This document shows, one piece after another, positions 47,161 to 55,223 of a stretch of 64,000 bases of DNA. A model generated the notes under the pieces. It did no database searches. It saw nothing but the letters and a program-made list of their open reading frames with translations, and was not told the DNA's origin. This DNA comes from Escherichia phage KEP4: the sequence record PP047754; one strand, written 5' to 3'. Numbering within the stretch: position 1 is the stretch's first letter; each line of letters opens with the position of its first letter. Made by a program: the position numbers and the translations under genes.

Positions 47161-47188
47161 ACAGAGGCTATAATGGCCTCTGTTTTTG
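47161..47188 (+). terminator. rho-independent terminator (acagaggc-tataat-ggcctctgt + TTTTTG)
   Basis: 8-9-bp stem, U-tract. Confidence 0.8.
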
Positions 47189-47206
47189 TATTCTAGAGAG
47201 GATACC

Positions 47207-48433
47207 ATGAAAGATAAACCGTGTGACATTCCTTATTGCGGTGTTCGGGAAGCTAAAATTAAATCTGCACATCCCATGTTAAGCCCATTCCATAAACAAC
47301 TCGCATACGAATGGATGAGCGAGCGCTATAAGATCCACGTGAGAAAGGACGTCCAGCGTCTTCCTGCTCCTTGGACGGATAATCCCATACTACGGCAGGT
47401 CAAGTTCTGTAACGTCCGGAGAGAGCACGACAGGCAGTCTCTTAACCTGATCAATAATATCGTCAAGAACGACGCTCTGAGCATGGCCGACAAAATGTTC
47501 AACTGTGTTCTGTTCCGCATGTTCAATCTCTGGGATCCGATCAAGGTGGCGCTCGAGGGCGCTATGACGATTTCAGACTTTGCTAAAATCAACCTGGACG
47601 AGACCCGCGCCCGTCTTCAGAAGTTTGAATCTGAAGGTGGTAAGATCTTCACCAACGCATTCAACACAGGCGGTCTAAAACAATGTCTGGCGTTCCCCGA
47701 ACTTGTTGTCAACCACAAGGAGCAGCGCTTCGGTGGCATGATGGTTAAGGTACACCGTGTTGGCCAGGGTGTCGTGGATGAATTGGATTACAAGGTCGCC
47801 AAGAAGCTGGTTGAAGAGAATCCTGGGGAGTACACCATTGAGGGTTGGGAGCCGTACATGCCAATGCGTGTCATCCGCTCTTTGAAGGCATTCGTCAACA
47901 AGTACCCCGATTACTTCAATGATCTTTTACGTCTTGACTCTCCGCTGAAAGTTTACCAGCGCATGTATGATGACATTGAAGGGCTTGGGCCATTCCTGGC
48001 ATATCAGATCTGGGTGGACTTCACATACATCCCTGAGTATCCATTCAGTGAGAATCATTTCACTATTGCTGGTCCAGGTTGCCGTGCGGGTATTGACCTG
48101 ATGTTCCTGGATAAGGACGGCATGACTCATGAAGAATGCATATTCTGGGTTCGTGATCATCAGTATCAATTGTTTGCTCAGTATGGTTATGTCCAAGAGC
48201 AGTTCTGGTCAGCCGAAGCGCCGGAAGATCAGTGCATGAACGTCATGCAGCTGGAGAACATGTTCTGTGAATTGAGCAAGTACACCCGCTGTGTTGAGGC
48301 TATCGAGAGAGGGGAAAAGCCACGCGGCAAGGTCGGTTATGATGGAGGCGGGAGATACAAAAATCGATGCGATGAAATTGTCCTCAATCGCGGATCGGTC
48401 AATTTATTAGATCGTTTGAAGAAACCTGAATAA
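47207..48433 (+). CDS. hypothetical protein (408 aa); speculative DNA/nucleotide-modification enzyme
   Basis: GAGAGG SD; Cys/His-rich N-terminus (CDIPYCG, KFCNVRREHD); no Walker motif; function not assignable by eye. Confidence 0.55.
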   Translation: MKDKPCDIPYCGVREAKIKSAHPMLSPFHKQLAYEWMSERYKIHVRKDVQRLPAPWTDNPILRQVKFCNVRREHDRQSLNLINNIVKNDALSMADKMFNCVLFRMFNLWDPIKVALEGAMTISDFAKINLDETRARLQKFESEGGKIFTNAFNTGGLKQCLAFPELVVNHKEQRFGGMMVKVHRVGQGVVDELDYKVAKKLVEENPGEYTIEGWEPYMPMRVIRSLKAFVNKYPDYFNDLLRLDSPLKVYQRMYDDIEGLGPFLAYQIWVDFTYIPEYPFSENHFTIAGPGCRAGIDLMFLDKDGMTHEECIFWVRDHQYQLFAQYGYVQEQFWSAEAPEDQCMNVMQLENMFCELSKYTRCVEAIERGEKPRGKVGYDGGGRYKNRCDEIVLNRGSVNLLDRLKKPE

Positions 48434-48546: not shown

Positions 48547-50562
48547 ATGGCAGAATTCAAACCCTTCGCAACGGCAGTTAATAACAACGTGCTGGCGATG
48601 TCCGCAACTGGTCTGTTCATGACCAATATCGATAAAGATGCTCTTTGGGATCTGTATCTGGCATCTTTCCCTGCTGGTACCAACCCGCTCTACCGTGAGC
48701 GTACTGAGCACGACTGCACCTGCTGTAAACAATTCATCCGTAACATCGGCGGTGTGGTCACCATCGACTCCGACCTGAACGTAATTTCTATCTGGGACAA
48801 CATTGATCTGGGTAATGAATATGACGTGGTGGCTGCGGCTCTTTCCGCGTATGTCAAACAACACGCAATCGTCGATGTTTATTTTAACGATTCTGCCAAA
48901 GTCGGCCTGTCTCACAATCACGAAATGAAAGACGGCAATGTCCGCACCTACAACCACTTCCACACCGACCTGCTGGGTAGCTATGTTCTGCGTCCGGACG
49001 CAATCGCTTCGAAAAAAGGTGAAATCCGCCAGGCTATTGAATTGTTTGAACGCGGTCTGCGTGAAATTACTCTGGAATCAGCTGAAATCGTTCTGGAACT
49101 GATTGACCAGAATTCTCTGTATCGCGGCGCAGAACACAAAGCAGCAGTGAAGGGATTTGTTGAAACCAAAAAGGCATATGAACAAATCCCCGAATCAGCC
49201 CGTTCTCTGTGGGCATGGCATACTGGATACCGTTCAAACAATCATGTTCCACACGGCATCCGTAACACAGTTATCGGCACTCTGCTGACAGATATCAGCG
49301 AAGGCGTGGAACTGGAAAAGGCTGTTAAATCGTTTGAATCCAAAGTTGCTCCGGCGAACTACAAACGTCCGACAGCGCTGGTTTCAAAATCCATGATCGA
49401 AAACGCTCAGAAAGAAGTTATTGCTCTGGGTTTGGAAGACTCACTGGCGCGTCGTTATGCGGTTTATGATGATCTGACAATCAACAACGTTCTGTTCGCA
49501 GATCTGGCTGCTCAGAAAGCGATGGATCCGTTTGCTCAGCTGGCTGCCGAAGTGAAAACTCCGACCAAGTCCCTGGAAAAAGTTGAAGAGATCAGCGTTG
49601 ATGATTTCCTGAGCAATGTTCTGCCAAAAGCGCATTCAATGGAAGTGCTTGTAGAGAATTCTCATACTAGCAACCTGATGTCCCTGGTTGCTCCGGCGAA
49701 CCCAGATGCGCCTAACCTGTTCAAGTGGAACAACGGTTTCTCCTGGTCTTACAACGGTGAAGTGACCGATTCCATTAAAGAACGTGTAAAGGCTGCTGGC
49801 GGTAAAGTTGACGGGTATCTGCGCGTTTCCTTGGCGTGGCACAATAACGACGACCTCGATCTGCATATGTTCAACAACATGGAGCACGTTTACTTCCGCG
49901 ATCGCCGCTCTATGACAGGTGCCCATCTGGATATCGATATGAACGGTATGGATGGTATTGATCCAAACCGCGCTCCGGTGGAAAATATCATCTTTACAGA
50001 TGAAAGCAAGCTGCGCGATGGTGAATACCGTTTCGAAATCCACAACTACAATCAACGTGAAAAAATCGACGAAGGGTTTGAAGTCGAAGTAGAATACAAA
50101 GGCGCAACGCATCGTTTCAGCCATCCTGGCCTGAAAGATCAGGGACGTATCACCGCAGTCATCTTGACTGTTAAAGACAAACAAGTTGTTGGCATTAAGT
50201 CCGAACTGGCTAATGTTGATAAGTCTAAAGAAGTTTGGGGTATCAAGACAGCGACCTTCCAGAAAGTACAGCTGGTCCTGAACTCACCAAACCATTGGGA
50301 TGGCGAGCAGACAGGCAACAAGCACGTGTTCTTCATCCTGGAAGGTTGTGCTAATCCTGAAGGTACTCGTGGTTTCTACAACGAATATCTGAAGCCAGAA
50401 CTGGATAAACATCGTAAGGTTTTTGAAATGTTGGGTAGTAAAATGAAAGTCCAGCCGAATGAAAACCAACTGTCCGGTCTGGGATTCTCGACGACGCAAC
50501 GCAACCATGTGTTCGTCAAAGTGTCCGGCGCGTTTAACCGTACTGTAAAAGTCATTTTCTAA
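48547..50562 (+). CDS. hypothetical large protein (671 aa)
   Basis: AGGAAG SD 8 nt upstream; TEHDCTCCKQF motif; no recognisable catalytic signature. Confidence 0.6.
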   Translation: MAEFKPFATAVNNNVLAMSATGLFMTNIDKDALWDLYLASFPAGTNPLYRERTEHDCTCCKQFIRNIGGVVTIDSDLNVISIWDNIDLGNEYDVVAAALSAYVKQHAIVDVYFNDSAKVGLSHNHEMKDGNVRTYNHFHTDLLGSYVLRPDAIASKKGEIRQAIELFERGLREITLESAEIVLELIDQNSLYRGAEHKAAVKGFVETKKAYEQIPESARSLWAWHTGYRSNNHVPHGIRNTVIGTLLTDISEGVELEKAVKSFESKVAPANYKRPTALVSKSMIENAQKEVIALGLEDSLARRYAVYDDLTINNVLFADLAAQKAMDPFAQLAAEVKTPTKSLEKVEEISVDDFLSNVLPKAHSMEVLVENSHTSNLMSLVAPANPDAPNLFKWNNGFSWSYNGEVTDSIKERVKAAGGKVDGYLRVSLAWHNNDDLDLHMFNNMEHVYFRDRRSMTGAHLDIDMNGMDGIDPNRAPVENIIFTDESKLRDGEYRFEIHNYNQREKIDEGFEVEVEYKGATHRFSHPGLKDQGRITAVILTVKDKQVVGIKSELANVDKSKEVWGIKTATFQKVQLVLNSPNHWDGEQTGNKHVFFILEGCANPEGTRGFYNEYLKPELDKHRKVFEMLGSKMKVQPNENQLSGLGFSTTQRNHVFVKVSGAFNRTVKVIF

Positions 50563-50992: not shown

Positions 50993-51020
50993 AAACCCCG
51001 CCGTGTGCGGGGTTTCTTTT
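50993..51020 (+). terminator. rho-independent terminator (aaaccccgc-cgtgt-gcggggttt + CTTTT)
   Basis: 9-bp stem plus U-tract closing the 47207-50972 unit. Confidence 0.85.
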
Positions 51021-51031
51021 GGACAAAAATC

Positions 51032-51442
51032 ATGAAATCTATTACGTGTGATTACTGCGGTCAACCTGCCCAATACGTCGGGTGTGATGTTGTATACCCC
51101 CACCGCCCCGACCTCCGCAATCTGAAGTTCTGGGTATGCTCGCCATGCGACGCTCGTGTGGGTTGCCATACCCATGGGGATGGTAGACAACCTCTGGGAA
51201 GGATGGCGAATGCCGCTCTCCGTGCTGCTAAGCAGGAAGCTCATAGATCGTTTGACCCTATCTGGAAAGGTGGGCAGAGGAGCAGGAGTGATGCTTACAG
51301 CTGGCTGGCTCATAATCTGGGGATCAAGAAGCGCGATTGCCATATCGGCTTGTTCGATATCGATATGTGCCGTAAAGTAGTCGCTGTGTGTAATCAACTA
51401 AAGGCACAAGATAATGTCAAAGGAAATACAAGAAGCATTTGA
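51032..51442 (+). CDS. zinc-ribbon protein (136 aa)
   Basis: CDYCG...C(x)VGC and CSPCDARVGCH Cys clusters; ATG 51032 (track start 51005 is GTG inside the terminator). Confidence 0.5.
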   Translation: MKSITCDYCGQPAQYVGCDVVYPHRPDLRNLKFWVCSPCDARVGCHTHGDGRQPLGRMANAALRAAKQEAHRSFDPIWKGGQRSRSDAYSWLAHNLGIKKRDCHIGLFDIDMCRKVVAVCNQLKAQDNVKGNTRSI

Positions 51443-51665: not shown

Positions 51666-52383
51666 TCGTGAAGGGATTAAACTCACACCAGAACTTCTGA
51701 AGTCACATATTGCTGAAGTGATTTATGAAGACCGTGAAGTTGGTGGTCACCGCGTCATTACATGCCATTTCAAGATGGACAATGGGTTCGTTGTGTGGGG
51801 TAAGAATAGTTCCACATCGGTAGACCCTGCCAACTTCGATGAAGAAATGGGCAAGCAGCTGGCCTATGAAAAGACCTTTTCTCAACTGTGGGAACTGGAA
51901 GCATATCGCGCGATGGTAGAAAAGCAGATCATCGATGTGTCTGCCGAAGATGCTAAGATCAACATTGATGAATATGTGTCAGAAAGGGAAGCGATACATG
52001 AGATGGGTGGTTCTGAATTTCTTAAGGGTAAAGGACAATCCATCGTGTTTCGTCATCCCAAAGATCCAAGTCGGGGATTTCGCGTTGAATTTGTTCGCAC
52101 CGATAATGAACGTTATAACGAACGACGCAATGGTGAGGCACGATCTTTGGTGGAAGCGTATCTTCGCTCGTTCATGACTTCTGAAGAACTAAATTCTGAA
52201 CTTGTCTTGCGTTTGGCGAAAACGTGTAATGCTGCTTCAGGGGATTATCCGTGGTGTGACCTGTCAGAAGACAAACGCCAAGCAGCCTGTGATCGTGTTA
52301 AGAAATTCTTGTTAGATCCGAAAGCCCAACCTGGTGATTCCGTAGGGGCACTGTATAGAGCCATTGTGGTGTCCTACTTGTAA
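51658..52383 (+). CDS. phage protein with N-terminal N4 gp49 / Sf6 gp66-like domain, tentative
   Basis: HRVITCHFKMDNGFVVWGKNSSTSVDPANFDEEMGKQLAYEKTFSQLWELEAY fits the family pattern as I recall it. Confidence 0.45.
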   Translation: MGNREGIKLTPELLKSHIAEVIYEDREVGGHRVITCHFKMDNGFVVWGKNSSTSVDPANFDEEMGKQLAYEKTFSQLWELEAYRAMVEKQIIDVSAEDAKINIDEYVSEREAIHEMGGSEFLKGKGQSIVFRHPKDPSRGFRVEFVRTDNERYNERRNGEARSLVEAYLRSFMTSEELNSELVLRLAKTCNAASGDYPWCDLSEDKRQAACDRVKKFLLDPKAQPGDSVGALYRAIVVSYL

Positions 52384-52650
52384 TTCTTCAAAAGTCTTTC
52401 AAAATCAATAACGTCCGGCAAAATGCTGGGCGTTTCAATTAATAAGCCAAGGTATAATGGCCCAACTGAAAACGCGGGGGAATTTCTTTGTCCAAGCCAT
52501 TCATTCGTTCCGGAGTTGATTCTCTAGACTCCCAATTTAAGCCGAGCGAAGTTTTAATCCAACAAATTGAAACCAATCGTGAATTCATAGAACACATGTT
52601 GGCAAAGCCGGAAGGTGAAGCCGCTCAAACCACCAAAGAAGGTAATAACG

Positions 52651-54867
52651 ATGATTGAATCATTAACATTTAAAAATGCGGTAGCAACCGTCGCGCCGTC
52701 TAACCATGTAATCGTTGTGGATATCTCCGGTTCCATGTACCGTTCACTTCCTGAAGTTCGCAAGCATCTGAAGGAAAATCTCCCGTCTCTGGTTAAACCA
52801 GAAGATACCGTCAGCATTCTTTACTTTTCATCCCGTGGTGATTTCGGTACGGTATTCGCTGGCCGTCAGATCAATAGCGCGACCGATCTCAGTGAAATCA
52901 ATAAACTGATTGACCGCTTCCTGCAACCGTCCGGTTGTACGGGATTTGTAGAACCTCTGAAGTTGGCTGCTGAAACCGCGTTGAGCCTGAACAAACCTGG
53001 TTATGTCAATAACCTGGCGTTCATGACCGACGGCTATGACAACTGCTGGCGCTCTAATGAAATTCTGGCAGCAGCTGAAGTACTGCCCAAGGCGTTCGAT
53101 AATATTACATTCATCGAATATGGCTGGTATTGTAACCGCGAACTTCTGGCTCTGATGTCCGAGCGTTCTGGCGCGACTCACGTGTTTGCCGAAGGTCAGA
53201 CTGAATATCAGACCGAACTGGAAAACGTACTGAAATCATCTACGCCGAAAGTGGTTGTTGATGTTCCCCTGGTTTACACTCATGCCATCTACGTTGAAAA
53301 CGGCGTGGCAACTGTGCTAGCCGTACAACCCGATGAAGAACACCCGATTGGCCACGTCAGCATCCCTGAAAGCGTTTCTCAGCTGTGGGTTGTAAACCCT
53401 AACATGATCGACCAGCTGGATAATCTGGCAGACACCCAGGCGGCATACGTGCTGGCATTCTATGGCGTGTACACCATGGACGCCGATCTGGTCTGGGCCG
53501 CGCTGAAGAAGACGGGTGACGTCCGCTTCATCAAACAATACAGCAACTGTTTCACCAAGCAGGACTATTCCAACATCAAAGTCGATCTGACCCAGGCTAT
53601 CGTGGATGAAACTCTACGCGGCGTAGATGGCATCGATTACAATATGGTTCCAGCTGAAGATGCAACGACCATTGTTGATGTCTTGACCTACCTGGCCGAA
53701 GCCGATGTCTCTGTTGTCACTAAGCATCCATTGTTCTCTTACAACAGCATCGGTCGCGGCACTGTGCAGAAAGTTGATGACACTGAAGACAAGCTGGCTG
53801 AACAAATCGCCGAAGCCAAAACCAAAGCAGAGCGTAAAGCGCTGGCTCTCAAACTGGCTGAGCACGAAGATTGGACACCGGAATTTACTCCGGTTGATGA
53901 CAAAGGGATTGTCCCAATTAGCAATCTGGTCTACAATTCAGAGCGCCCTAACATCAGCATTCAGACCGTTCAGCATGGGACGGTTGTTGTGCCGGAGTTC
54001 GTACAGAAGAAATATGAACTCCCTGAAGAACTGGGAACCTGGCGTTATCGTAATTACACCATCGTCAAAGATGGAATCATCAACCTGAAGACGATGCCGA
54101 TTACTGCCGAATCTCCGATTGTCCGAGCTAAGGTTGTCCAAGATTTGATCGCCATGGGCGTTAATGTATTTGGTGGACCGGAAATCTTCATCGTTAATTT
54201 AGAAAGCGTTCCGATGGTCAACCGCGCCATGACCAAGAACATCAGTGCTGCCGAATTCTTCGCTGACAACGTTCGTCGCGAAGCGCTGAAGGCAAAACAG
54301 AAAGTTCTGAAATTCTATCGTGATGAACTGGTTGGCAAAGGCAATGCAACTGGTCTGGCTTCTAAATATGGTAAAGAAGCCGCCGATTTCTTGTCGGCAA
54401 ATGGCATTCGCGACTACGGGTTCTCGCCGAAAACTACTTCTGTGGAATCAACCGATGTCTACATGAGCCGTGAGCTGAATGTGAAAATCAAAGGTGCTTC
54501 GTCGCTGCCGAGCATTGCGTCAGTTATCAAAAAGCAAGCAGATGGTAAAAAACTGAATGTCGCTGATCAGTTGATTGCCAATGCTTTGGCCGAATACGAC
54601 GCTTTTGTTAAATCGCCAATGATCACCAGCGTACCTGAAGAGACTCAGAAAAAGCTGATTGAAAGCTGGATCGGGGACGCAGCAAAAGCGGCCATTAACG
54701 AAGTCCGCGCCCTGAACAAAACTCTGTCTAAAGTAGTTTACGGCATCGTCGCTGGTCATGGTTGGTTCACTGATTTGGATCTGGAAGAGTCTACGATGGA
54801 TGTAGAAGTTGATGGGGTGAAATACACCGTCACTGCCGAACTGGCCGAAAAAGAAATCAAAATCTAA
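52651..54867 (+). CDS. von Willebrand factor A (vWA) domain protein, 738 aa
   Basis: N-terminal MIDAS-type motif VVDISGSM with downstream TDGYDN; track start 52615 is GTG; 267-bp untranslated region upstream. Confidence 0.65.
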   Translation: MIESLTFKNAVATVAPSNHVIVVDISGSMYRSLPEVRKHLKENLPSLVKPEDTVSILYFSSRGDFGTVFAGRQINSATDLSEINKLIDRFLQPSGCTGFVEPLKLAAETALSLNKPGYVNNLAFMTDGYDNCWRSNEILAAAEVLPKAFDNITFIEYGWYCNRELLALMSERSGATHVFAEGQTEYQTELENVLKSSTPKVVVDVPLVYTHAIYVENGVATVLAVQPDEEHPIGHVSIPESVSQLWVVNPNMIDQLDNLADTQAAYVLAFYGVYTMDADLVWAALKKTGDVRFIKQYSNCFTKQDYSNIKVDLTQAIVDETLRGVDGIDYNMVPAEDATTIVDVLTYLAEADVSVVTKHPLFSYNSIGRGTVQKVDDTEDKLAEQIAEAKTKAERKALALKLAEHEDWTPEFTPVDDKGIVPISNLVYNSERPNISIQTVQHGTVVVPEFVQKKYELPEELGTWRYRNYTIVKDGIINLKTMPITAESPIVRAKVVQDLIAMGVNVFGGPEIFIVNLESVPMVNRAMTKNISAAEFFADNVRREALKAKQKVLKFYRDELVGKGNATGLASKYGKEAADFLSANGIRDYGFSPKTTSVESTDVYMSRELNVKIKGASSLPSIASVIKKQADGKKLNVADQLIANALAEYDAFVKSPMITSVPEETQKKLIESWIGDAAKAAINEVRALNKTLSKVVYGIVAGHGWFTDLDLEESTMDVEVDGVKYTVTAELAEKEIKI

Positions 54868-54875
54868 ATCTAATT

Positions 54876-54899
54876 GGCGGGGAAACCCGCCTTTACTTT
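54876..54899 (+). terminator. terminator-like hairpin (ggcggg-gaaa-cccgcc + TTTACTTT)
   Basis: 6-bp GC stem after the vWA gene. Confidence 0.55.
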
Positions 54900-54911
54900 C
54901 AGGAAATGAAT

Positions 54912-55223
54912 ATGAGCAACAAACCGACTTATGTTGATGTCATGCGCGATTTGGCCCAATACGCATGTGACAACCTGAACATGGAAACTTGGCGCGACGG
55001 CGATCATAAAGAAAAGTTCGATAATATCGACGACAACATCGATGCGTTGGCTCCTCTTCGGGCCAAGAGCGATCTCGGCGGTGATGATCTTGACATGATT
55101 GAACTCATCATGGAAGTTGAAGAACAATATGATGTTGAAATCAGTGATGACTGGGTAGGCAAACATGGTGATGATCCCACGCTCGGCGAATTAGCTGAAT
55201 TGGTAGTTGCCCTCAGCAAGTAA
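54912..55223 (+). CDS. acyl carrier protein-like protein with Asp at the phosphopantetheine-attachment position
   Basis: SDLGGDDLDMIELIMEVEEQYDVEI aligns with ACP helix II ([24 protein letters not shown]) but has D where the conserved Ser lies (codon 55086-55088 gat). Confidence 0.6.
   Translation: MSNKPTYVDVMRDLAQYACDNLNMETWRDGDHKEKFDNIDDNIDALAPLRAKSDLGGDDLDMIELIMEVEEQYDVEISDDWVGKHGDDPTLGELAELVVALSK

Follow-up and report, generated by a model that had tools for sequence, protein, structure and literature searches.

A phage family of vWA proteins with a conserved metal-ion-dependent adhesion motif and a C-terminal module without detectable relatives

Introduction

What might a large protein with a vWA (von Willebrand factor A) domain do in a phage in which no AAA+ ATPase partner can be found for it? 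The question is raised by a 738-amino-acid (aa) product encoded in a 64,000-nucleotide (nt) stretch of Escherichia phage KEP4 (PP047754), which was analysed as a whole and is called the window here. The initial annotation, made from the sequence alone, had singled out this product for its metal-binding motif, a long unassigned C-terminal part, a 267-bp untranslated region in front of it and the lack of a nearby MoxR-type ATPase. Here we report that the protein is a variant of the stand-alone vWA proteins whose C-terminal module had gone unrecognised, and we weigh what it may do.

Results

The vWA gene and its metal-ion-dependent adhesion site

The 738-aa open reading frame (ORF) is a real gene that is already present in GenBank and PHROGs, and the observation itself is not new. 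Residues 1-738 matched phrog_2426 ("unknown function") over positions 2-736 of the 736 in the profile, with E = 0 and 1259 bits, and family members are labelled "vWA-containing" or hypothetical protein in GenBank (for example LIMEstone1 ORF108, CBA120 orf143 and RB43 CCK73967). A longer frame (52615-54867) opens at GTG, and the ATG at 52651 yields the 738-aa product. The first residues M-I-(E/S/T) were found at the equivalent position in all 35 aligned homologues, and a purine-rich ribosome-binding site (AAGAAGG) lies 7-8 nt 5' of this ATG; because homologues begin at the equivalent residue and AAGAAGG stands just upstream, ATG 52651 is the true start. The product described in the initial annotation, with VVDISGSM at residues 22-29, was therefore borne out as to both ORF and start codon. 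No signal peptide or transmembrane segment was evident in its sequence, and no PADLOC defence model matched it at E up to 0.1.

The vWA domain was recognised by Pfam PF00092 over residues 20-183 with 29.9 bits against a gathering score of 23.8, and it has the Rossmann-like alpha/beta fold. [quoted passage not shown] The residues D24-x-S26-x-S28, T97 and D127 were invariant in an alignment of 35 homologues of 88% to 34% identity, and the MIDAS triad was kept in all 240 of the 244 full-length family members that have an intact N-terminus. The motif is thus genuine, and the vWA domain retains the complete set of MIDAS residues. In addition, a profile search against PDB sequences gave weak matches to ITIH1 (E 5e-5) and ArnB (E 1.7e-4), both confined to residues 6-220.

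Distribution of the family

A word-indexed search returned 240 relatives, and among the 120 listed, 119 aligned over 96-100% of the query, the exception being a 482-aa fragment. An exhaustive phmmer search with residues 249-738 detected 1027 representative proteins at E < 1e-3 (822 below 1e-10), the representatives being clusters at 50% identity with metagenomes included. Nearly all of the best 150 of these 1027 were 680-820 aa long and carried the module in the same C-terminal position, which indicates a uniform architecture. Among cultured phages, the family was found in 501 records that span Ackermannviridae, several Straboviridae genera, RB43-like, KP15-like and GAP161-like phages, Pantoea phage Phynn, Pseudomonas pf16, and Rhizobium and Bacillus phages. 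Bacterial and archaeal genomes (one per species, 185,579 species) held only three family loci. One of these lay on a contig of 178 kb, as is typical of T4-like phages, and another near a T4-like capsid gene; the third, in Novimethylophilus kurashikiensis (L018 7140-9287, on a 225-kb contig; 33% identity), was the only chromosomal-looking copy and adjoins type I secretion genes (ABC/HlyD/OEP) and a gene for a ClpP-like protease. The family is almost exclusive to large virulent myoviruses.

In every lineage examined, the vWA gene was located among replication and nucleotide-metabolism genes. When the window neighbours were compared with those of distant homologues by tblastn and blastp, no shared neighbour was found between distant lineages, and in T4-like members the upstream gene is another one (about 110 aa). 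Since no neighbour is conserved across lineages, autonomous action or a host partner is favoured.

Predicted structure and the C-terminal module

The full-length AlphaFold model was confident, with a predicted local distance difference test (pLDDT) score of 86.7 and a predicted template modelling (pTM) score of 0.72. In the model, residues 1 to ~290 form a vWA domain and a beta-sandwich that are closest to ArnB, Sec24, ITIH and 4fx5; the vWA domain packs against the beta-sandwich on its C-terminal side, and 265-293 residues align with ArnB, 4fx5 and Sec24, a resemblance that is structural only. The C-terminal ~450 residues are modelled as a well-predicted alpha/beta module (pLDDT 89.9 for the C-terminal module). 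This module contains long helical hairpins, its acidic beta-hairpin at the C-terminus ends in EKEIKI, and no relative of it could be detected outside the family. Structural neighbours of this module were sought and none was found. The initial annotation had left about 550 C-terminal residues unassigned, and this was confirmed at the sequence level: a domain search of this part gave nothing, and residues beyond ~220 had no Pfam, NCBIfam, PADLOC or PDB-sequence match, nor any by profile against PDB. The strongly conserved polar residues of the module are R432, N434, S436, D474, K551, D602, Y604 and S617. Furthermore, residues 531-635 form a basic (pI about 9.6), highly conserved stretch in a protein that is acidic as a whole. 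No zinc finger was found in the vWA protein.

Search for an ATPase partner

The annotation of the complete genome of Salmonella phage Guerrero, a close relative, contained no MoxR, CobS or ChlI-type ATPase. When the same genome was scanned with the MoxR-style Walker-A pattern G..G.[GA]K[ST], the only matches were thymidylate kinase, PhoH and the gp41-like helicase. Relaxing the pattern brought in another two helicases as well as two small ORFs. The clamp loader of the phage itself escaped the strict pattern, and the scan is thus non-exhaustive. Nor was a MoxR-type gene present around the distant homologues from marine T4-like, jumbo-like, RB43-like and pf16 phages. These results support the earlier statement that no MoxR-type ATPase is encoded near the vWA gene. 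The missing partner is real but typical of many stand-alone vWA proteins, and it is not by itself unusual.

A small acidic protein is encoded upstream

The 267 bp in front of the vWA gene had been read as an untranslated region, unusually long for this genome; this reading did not hold. Of these 267 nt, 171 belong to the coding sequence of a conserved 56-aa protein; this ORF runs into the start of the vWA gene, its TGA stop and the vWA ATG sharing bases within ATGATTGA. The TTG that opens this ORF stands six bases after GGGGGA, and in all lineages examined other than that of the window the ORF begins with ATG. By tblastn it was present in 217 phage records at protein identities down to 45% (45-62% in Det7, Agtrevirus, Limestonevirus, a Yersinia phage and Taipeivirus), and it is annotated in Matapan (CPT_Matapan_100), Det7 (DET7_43), SKML-39 and other records. 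Pairwise dN/dS (ratio of nonsynonymous to synonymous substitution rates) among five lineages, drawn from Kuttervirus, Agtrevirus, Limestonevirus and the Yersinia phage, ranged from 0.06 to 0.6, with third-position changes dominating. The substitution pattern thus indicates that the 56-aa ORF is under purifying selection, conserved across four Ackermannviridae genera.

The arrangement varies around a constant junction. In Klebsiella phage Menlow (Taipeivirus) the small protein is 47 aa long, and both its ...GNNDD* ending and the overlap are retained. Some Kutterviruses (ssTn, ECML-4 and Guerrero), Agtrevirus, the Yersinia phage and Taipeivirus carry an extra ORF of 118-119 aa that separates the small ORF from the spacer; in Dickeya phage JA15 (Limestonevirus), this ORF and the small one are joined as one 180-aa ORF, of which the 56-aa equivalent is the C-terminal third. 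A 359-bp indel (between window positions 52484 and 52488; L002 3186-3545) carries the 119-aa ORF, and this piece is absent from the window's lineage (Vi01/GOT) and from the Det7 and SenASZ3 types. Translation of the vWA gene appears to be coupled to the 56-aa ORF via the overlapping stop and start. The real gap is 104 nt. Crude gene calls in the window gave gaps with a median of 26 nt, a 90th percentile of 120 and a maximum of 324, and because the gaps reach these values, 104 nt is ordinary for an operon boundary. The "long UTR" (untranslated region) is therefore an overlooked small gene that does not start with ATG, together with an unremarkable terminator/promoter spacer of 104 nt.

An ACP-like neighbour downstream

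The next gene encodes an acidic 105-aa protein that resembles acyl carrier protein (ACP), and its place downstream of the vWA gene is conserved in Kuttervirus, Limestonevirus and Taipeivirus. NCBIfam acyl-carrier models matched it below their cut-offs. In comparison with E. coli ACP, the phosphopantetheine-accepting Ser of DSLD is replaced (DDLD or DELD), by Asp in the window (DLGGDDLD) and by Glu in JA15 (L010 8411-8734) and Menlow (L021 3299-3640), where the sequence is DLGGDELD. The protein is thus predicted to be incapable of phosphopantetheinylation, so that it would be no functional carrier, and it may be an ACP mimic. Both the small ORF and the ACP-like gene are Ackermannviridae-specific partners of the vWA gene.

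Spacer, terminator-like sites and expression

The stretch equivalent to the spacer is annotated as a terminator in OR122688, as is the hairpin site after the vWA stop, which is so annotated in Menlow too. The fold z-score of the whole upstream region was only -1.35, and Rfam gave no significant family for the spacer. TCAATAAC, one copy of which lies in the spacer, was found in intergenic regions of the window's non-structural half (44269, 48455, 52405, 55299 and 58937, + strand), at 1-22 nt from the preceding stop codon and in many cases directly ahead of a hairpin, and the related TTCAATAA occurs near 36.6 kb and 61.6 kb; the recurrence amounts to 9 matches versus 3.1 expected. A scan for the sigma-70 consensus gave hits no more often than it did in shuffled sequence, and the spacer contained no hit; we infer a promoter role for the TATAAT there.

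In the first half of the window, CTAAATA precedes eight or nine structural-gene starts by 30-45 nt, and it is probably the late-promoter box of the phage. The T4-type late promoter TATAAATA was considered and rejected, with only two copies in the window, which is the chance level and no enrichment. No CTAAATA box was found upstream of the vWA operon. Because this late-type motif is absent upstream of the operon and TATAAT is there instead, non-late expression of the vWA operon is suggested. One CTAAATA (54362-54368) falls within the vWA gene towards its 3' end, ~540 nt upstream of the ACP-like gene, and could be a chance occurrence or an internal late promoter. Literature searches yielded no usable Ackermannviridae transcriptome covering the vWA gene.

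Genomic setting

Positions 52300-54900 of the window were 100% identical to Salmonella phages GEC_vB_GOT and GEC_vB_N6 and >99% identical to Vi01, Matapan and other Kuttervirus genomes, with 218 matching phage records. These identities assign the source of the window to a Kuttervirus (Ackermannviridae, ViI-like) phage, and the genes around the vWA ORF fit a ViI-like phage. The neighbours listed in the table are joined by an N4 gp49/Sf6 gp66-family protein. The 671-aa neighbour had no Pfam, NCBIfam or PDB-sequence match, and kinship between it and the vWA protein was rejected after no similarity was found. This 671-aa protein was detected at trace level in Sajous1 virions.

Table 1. Positions of the vWA gene, its parts and the surrounding features in the window
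Feature	Position	Strand	Remarks
vWA-family gene	52651..54867	+	738 aa, 81.5 kDa, pI 5.0; full-length phrog_2426 member
vWA (Rossmann-like) domain	52699..53235	+	residues ~17-195
Predicted MIDAS D24, S26, S28	52720-52734	+
Predicted MIDAS T97	52939-52941	+
Predicted MIDAS D127	53029-53031	+
Beta-sandwich (~196-249) and first helical bundle (~250-330), modelled	53236..53640	+	extend vWA as in ArnB, Sec24, 4fx5
Phage-specific C-terminal alpha/beta module, modelled	53641..54864	+	residues ~331-738
Conserved 56-aa acidic protein	52488..52658	+	pI 4.6; TTG start; ends ...EGNNDD
Intergenic spacer, 104 nt	52384..52487	+
TCAATAAC box in spacer	52405-52412	+
11-bp hairpin in spacer (predicted)	52410-52434	+
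-10-like TATAAT in spacer	52453-52458	+
Shine-Dalgarno GGGGGA in spacer	52476-52481	+
GC-rich hairpin GGCGGGGAAACCCGCC then TTTACTTT	54876..54891	+	terminator-like; just past vWA stop
ACP-like acidic protein	54906..55223	+	105 aa, pI 4.05
5-Hydroxymethyldeoxyuridine (5-hmdU) DNA kinase homologue	47186-48433		4 kb upstream of vWA gene
671-aa protein, phrog_1735	48547-50562		some records label "putative DNA-directed RNA polymerase"
DUF3268 zinc-finger protein	51005-51442		1.2 kb upstream of vWA gene
CTAAATA	4907, 8135, 10728, 15916, 22432, 26682, 31464, 32682	+	probable late-promoter box

Discussion

We tentatively favour the reading that the protein is a stand-alone, ATPase-independent MIDAS adaptor. 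Mg2+ or a similar ion would be held by D24, S26, S28, T97 and D127, and its coordination would be completed by an acidic side chain or the acidic tail of a partner protein, so that the vWA protein would act as a metal-dependent clamp or adaptor while the phage-specific C-terminal module would supply a scaffold or effector surface. A small operon would start in the spacer, with translation of the vWA gene coupled to that of the acidic 56-aa peptide; expression together with the early/middle DNA-metabolism genes, not the late structural ones, is probable on this model, and small amounts would co-purify with virions. We speculate that the 56-aa peptide or the ACP-like protein could serve as the MIDAS ligand or as a co-factor. 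It is a long shot that, in Ackermannviridae, the -NDD peptide, the vWA protein and the ACP-like protein form one functional module in which the MIDAS clamps the acidic tip of a small partner or of a mimicked host protein (for example host ACP); if true, the three genes would make an ATPase-free, metal-dependent device for host takeover or an injected effector, built on a fold not seen before.

Several points weigh against an adaptor of this kind. Its mechanism is extrapolated from MIDAS vWA domains elsewhere (integrin I domains, midasin and ArnB), and the conserved polar residues of the C-terminal module could mark an enzyme active site rather than a scaffold. The EGNNDD tail of the small protein is encoded by bases that overlap the ribosome-binding site and start codon of the vWA gene, and its conservation may reflect a constraint at the nucleotide level; likewise, the timing of vWA expression is read from motifs only. 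Finally, virion mass spectrometry of LIMEstone1 recovered six unique peptides of the orthologue ORF108, with 11.4% coverage (PMC3296691).

This last result bears on a second reading, in which the protein is a low-copy virion component, either injected with the DNA in the manner of T4 Alt and the internal proteins or placed in the tail or baseplate as a MIDAS adhesin for a cell-surface ligand. The peptide yield of ORF108 resembled that of the tape-measure protein and the gp27 hub and exceeded that of the contaminants PhoH, gp44 and rIIB, with one peptide each (PMC3296691), and because the LIMEstone1 orthologue outscored these contaminants, a structural or injected role retains some probability. 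The orthologue gp185 was also detected in CsCl-purified Sajous1 virions (PMC10892097), but its single spectrum equals those of dUTPase, thymidylate synthase and clamp loader. Two GenBank records label orthologues "minor tail protein"; this label, like "magnesium chelatase" elsewhere in the family, is an automatic annotation and was rejected. A virion protein is further at odds with the lack of the late-type CTAAATA upstream, with the constant location of the gene among replication and nucleotide-metabolism genes, and with the N-terminus, in which we read no (L/I)-x-E prohead-protease motif. For KP15-like or pf16 phages, literature searches yielded no usable virion proteome covering the vWA gene. 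Overall, we consider a virion role possible but doubtful.

It is unlikely that the protein serves as co-chaperone, that is, as substrate adaptor, of a MoxR-type AAA+ ATPase borrowed from the host. A candidate, RavA, is present in enterobacterial hosts, but the phages of this family infect very different hosts, which makes a single host ATPase partner improbable. Pairs of MoxR and vWA proteins have been described in jumbo phages and an archaeal virus (PMC7824862); here, by contrast, no MoxR gene was found by annotation and the non-exhaustive motif scan in the window or the genome of the close relative, and none near the distant homologues. In addition, an N-terminal vWA domain followed by a unique module of 490 aa is unlike ViaA, NorD and CbbO.

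A DNA or chromatin factor composed of a vWA domain, a beta-barrel and a helical arm like Ku70/80 or INTS13/14, acting on phage DNA ends, replication or the nearby-encoded thymidine hypermodification, seems quite improbable. The location of the gene among replication genes, 4 kb from the 5-hmdU DNA kinase homologue, the conserved basic stretch at residues 531-635 and the presence of a family member in Bacillus phage SP-15, whose DNA is hypermodified, would suit such a factor. The protein as a whole is acidic, however, Kutterviruses already encode a gp2-like DNA end protector, and the family occurs in RB43-like and KP15-like phages, in which we know of no such thymidine hypermodification. Moreover, five other ViI genes reconstitute 5-(2-aminoethoxy)methyldeoxyuridine (5-NeOmdU) in lysates without the vWA gene (PMC5889632), and a part for this gene in thymidine hypermodification was rejected since it is not among the five sufficient ones. 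A metal-chelatase subunit (CobT, ChlD or BchD) is suggested by the "magnesium chelatase" label of record ON809763 and by CobS/CobT pairs in phages (PMC8651126), but this reading is effectively refuted by architecture, as those subunits have a C-terminal vWA domain and an AAA+ partner (CobS, ChlI or BchI), whereas here the vWA domain is N-terminal, the protein has no AAA+ module and its similarity is limited to the generic vWA domain.

The adaptor reading concerns an 80-kDa family protein that is conserved across hundreds of sequenced therapeutic and model phages, with carriers among Kuttervirus, Limestonevirus, Taipeivirus, RB43-like, KP15-like, Karamvirus-like, pf16 and marine T4-like phages, and that forms >1000 clusters at 50% identity in metagenomes with function unassigned. 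It is well-defined phage dark matter, and current understanding is not overturned. The invariant MIDAS offers a clean experimental handle through point mutants and metal-dependent pull-downs. The TTG-start small gene behind the "long leader" is useful for annotating these phages, and the correction itself is routine annotation.

How does the protein compare with known systems? It belongs to the same gene family as phrog_2426, LIMEstone1 ORF108, CBA120 orf143 and RB43 CCK73967, to which no function is assigned. The vWA domain plus beta-sandwich is shared with ArnB of Sulfolobus acidocaldarius and with the trunk plus beta-barrel of Sec23/Sec24. ArnB, however, is about 380 aa long, lacks the 450-aa C-terminal module and has only 17% sequence identity to the phage protein, for which no ArnA-like zinc-ribbon/FHA partner is evident; the phage family is also viral, with a bacterial host. 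ITIH1 and ITIH4 come from eukaryotes, are secreted and carry a VIT domain at the N-terminus, and the vWA protein 4fx5 of Catenulispora stems from structural genomics and has no assigned function; neither the ITIH proteins nor 4fx5 have the phage C-terminal module. With CobT and ChlD/BchD the phage protein shares the vWA/MIDAS in reversed domain order, with no AAA+ partner found and no similarity outside the vWA domain. Finally, ViaA, NorD, CbbO, CoxE and the MoxR-vWA pairs of jumbo phages and ATV share with it a cytoplasmic MIDAS vWA domain that presumably binds an acidic residue of the client, but these MoxR-associated co-chaperones differ in that the phage genome has no detected MoxR, the phage vWA domain is N-terminal and the remainder of the protein is unrelated.

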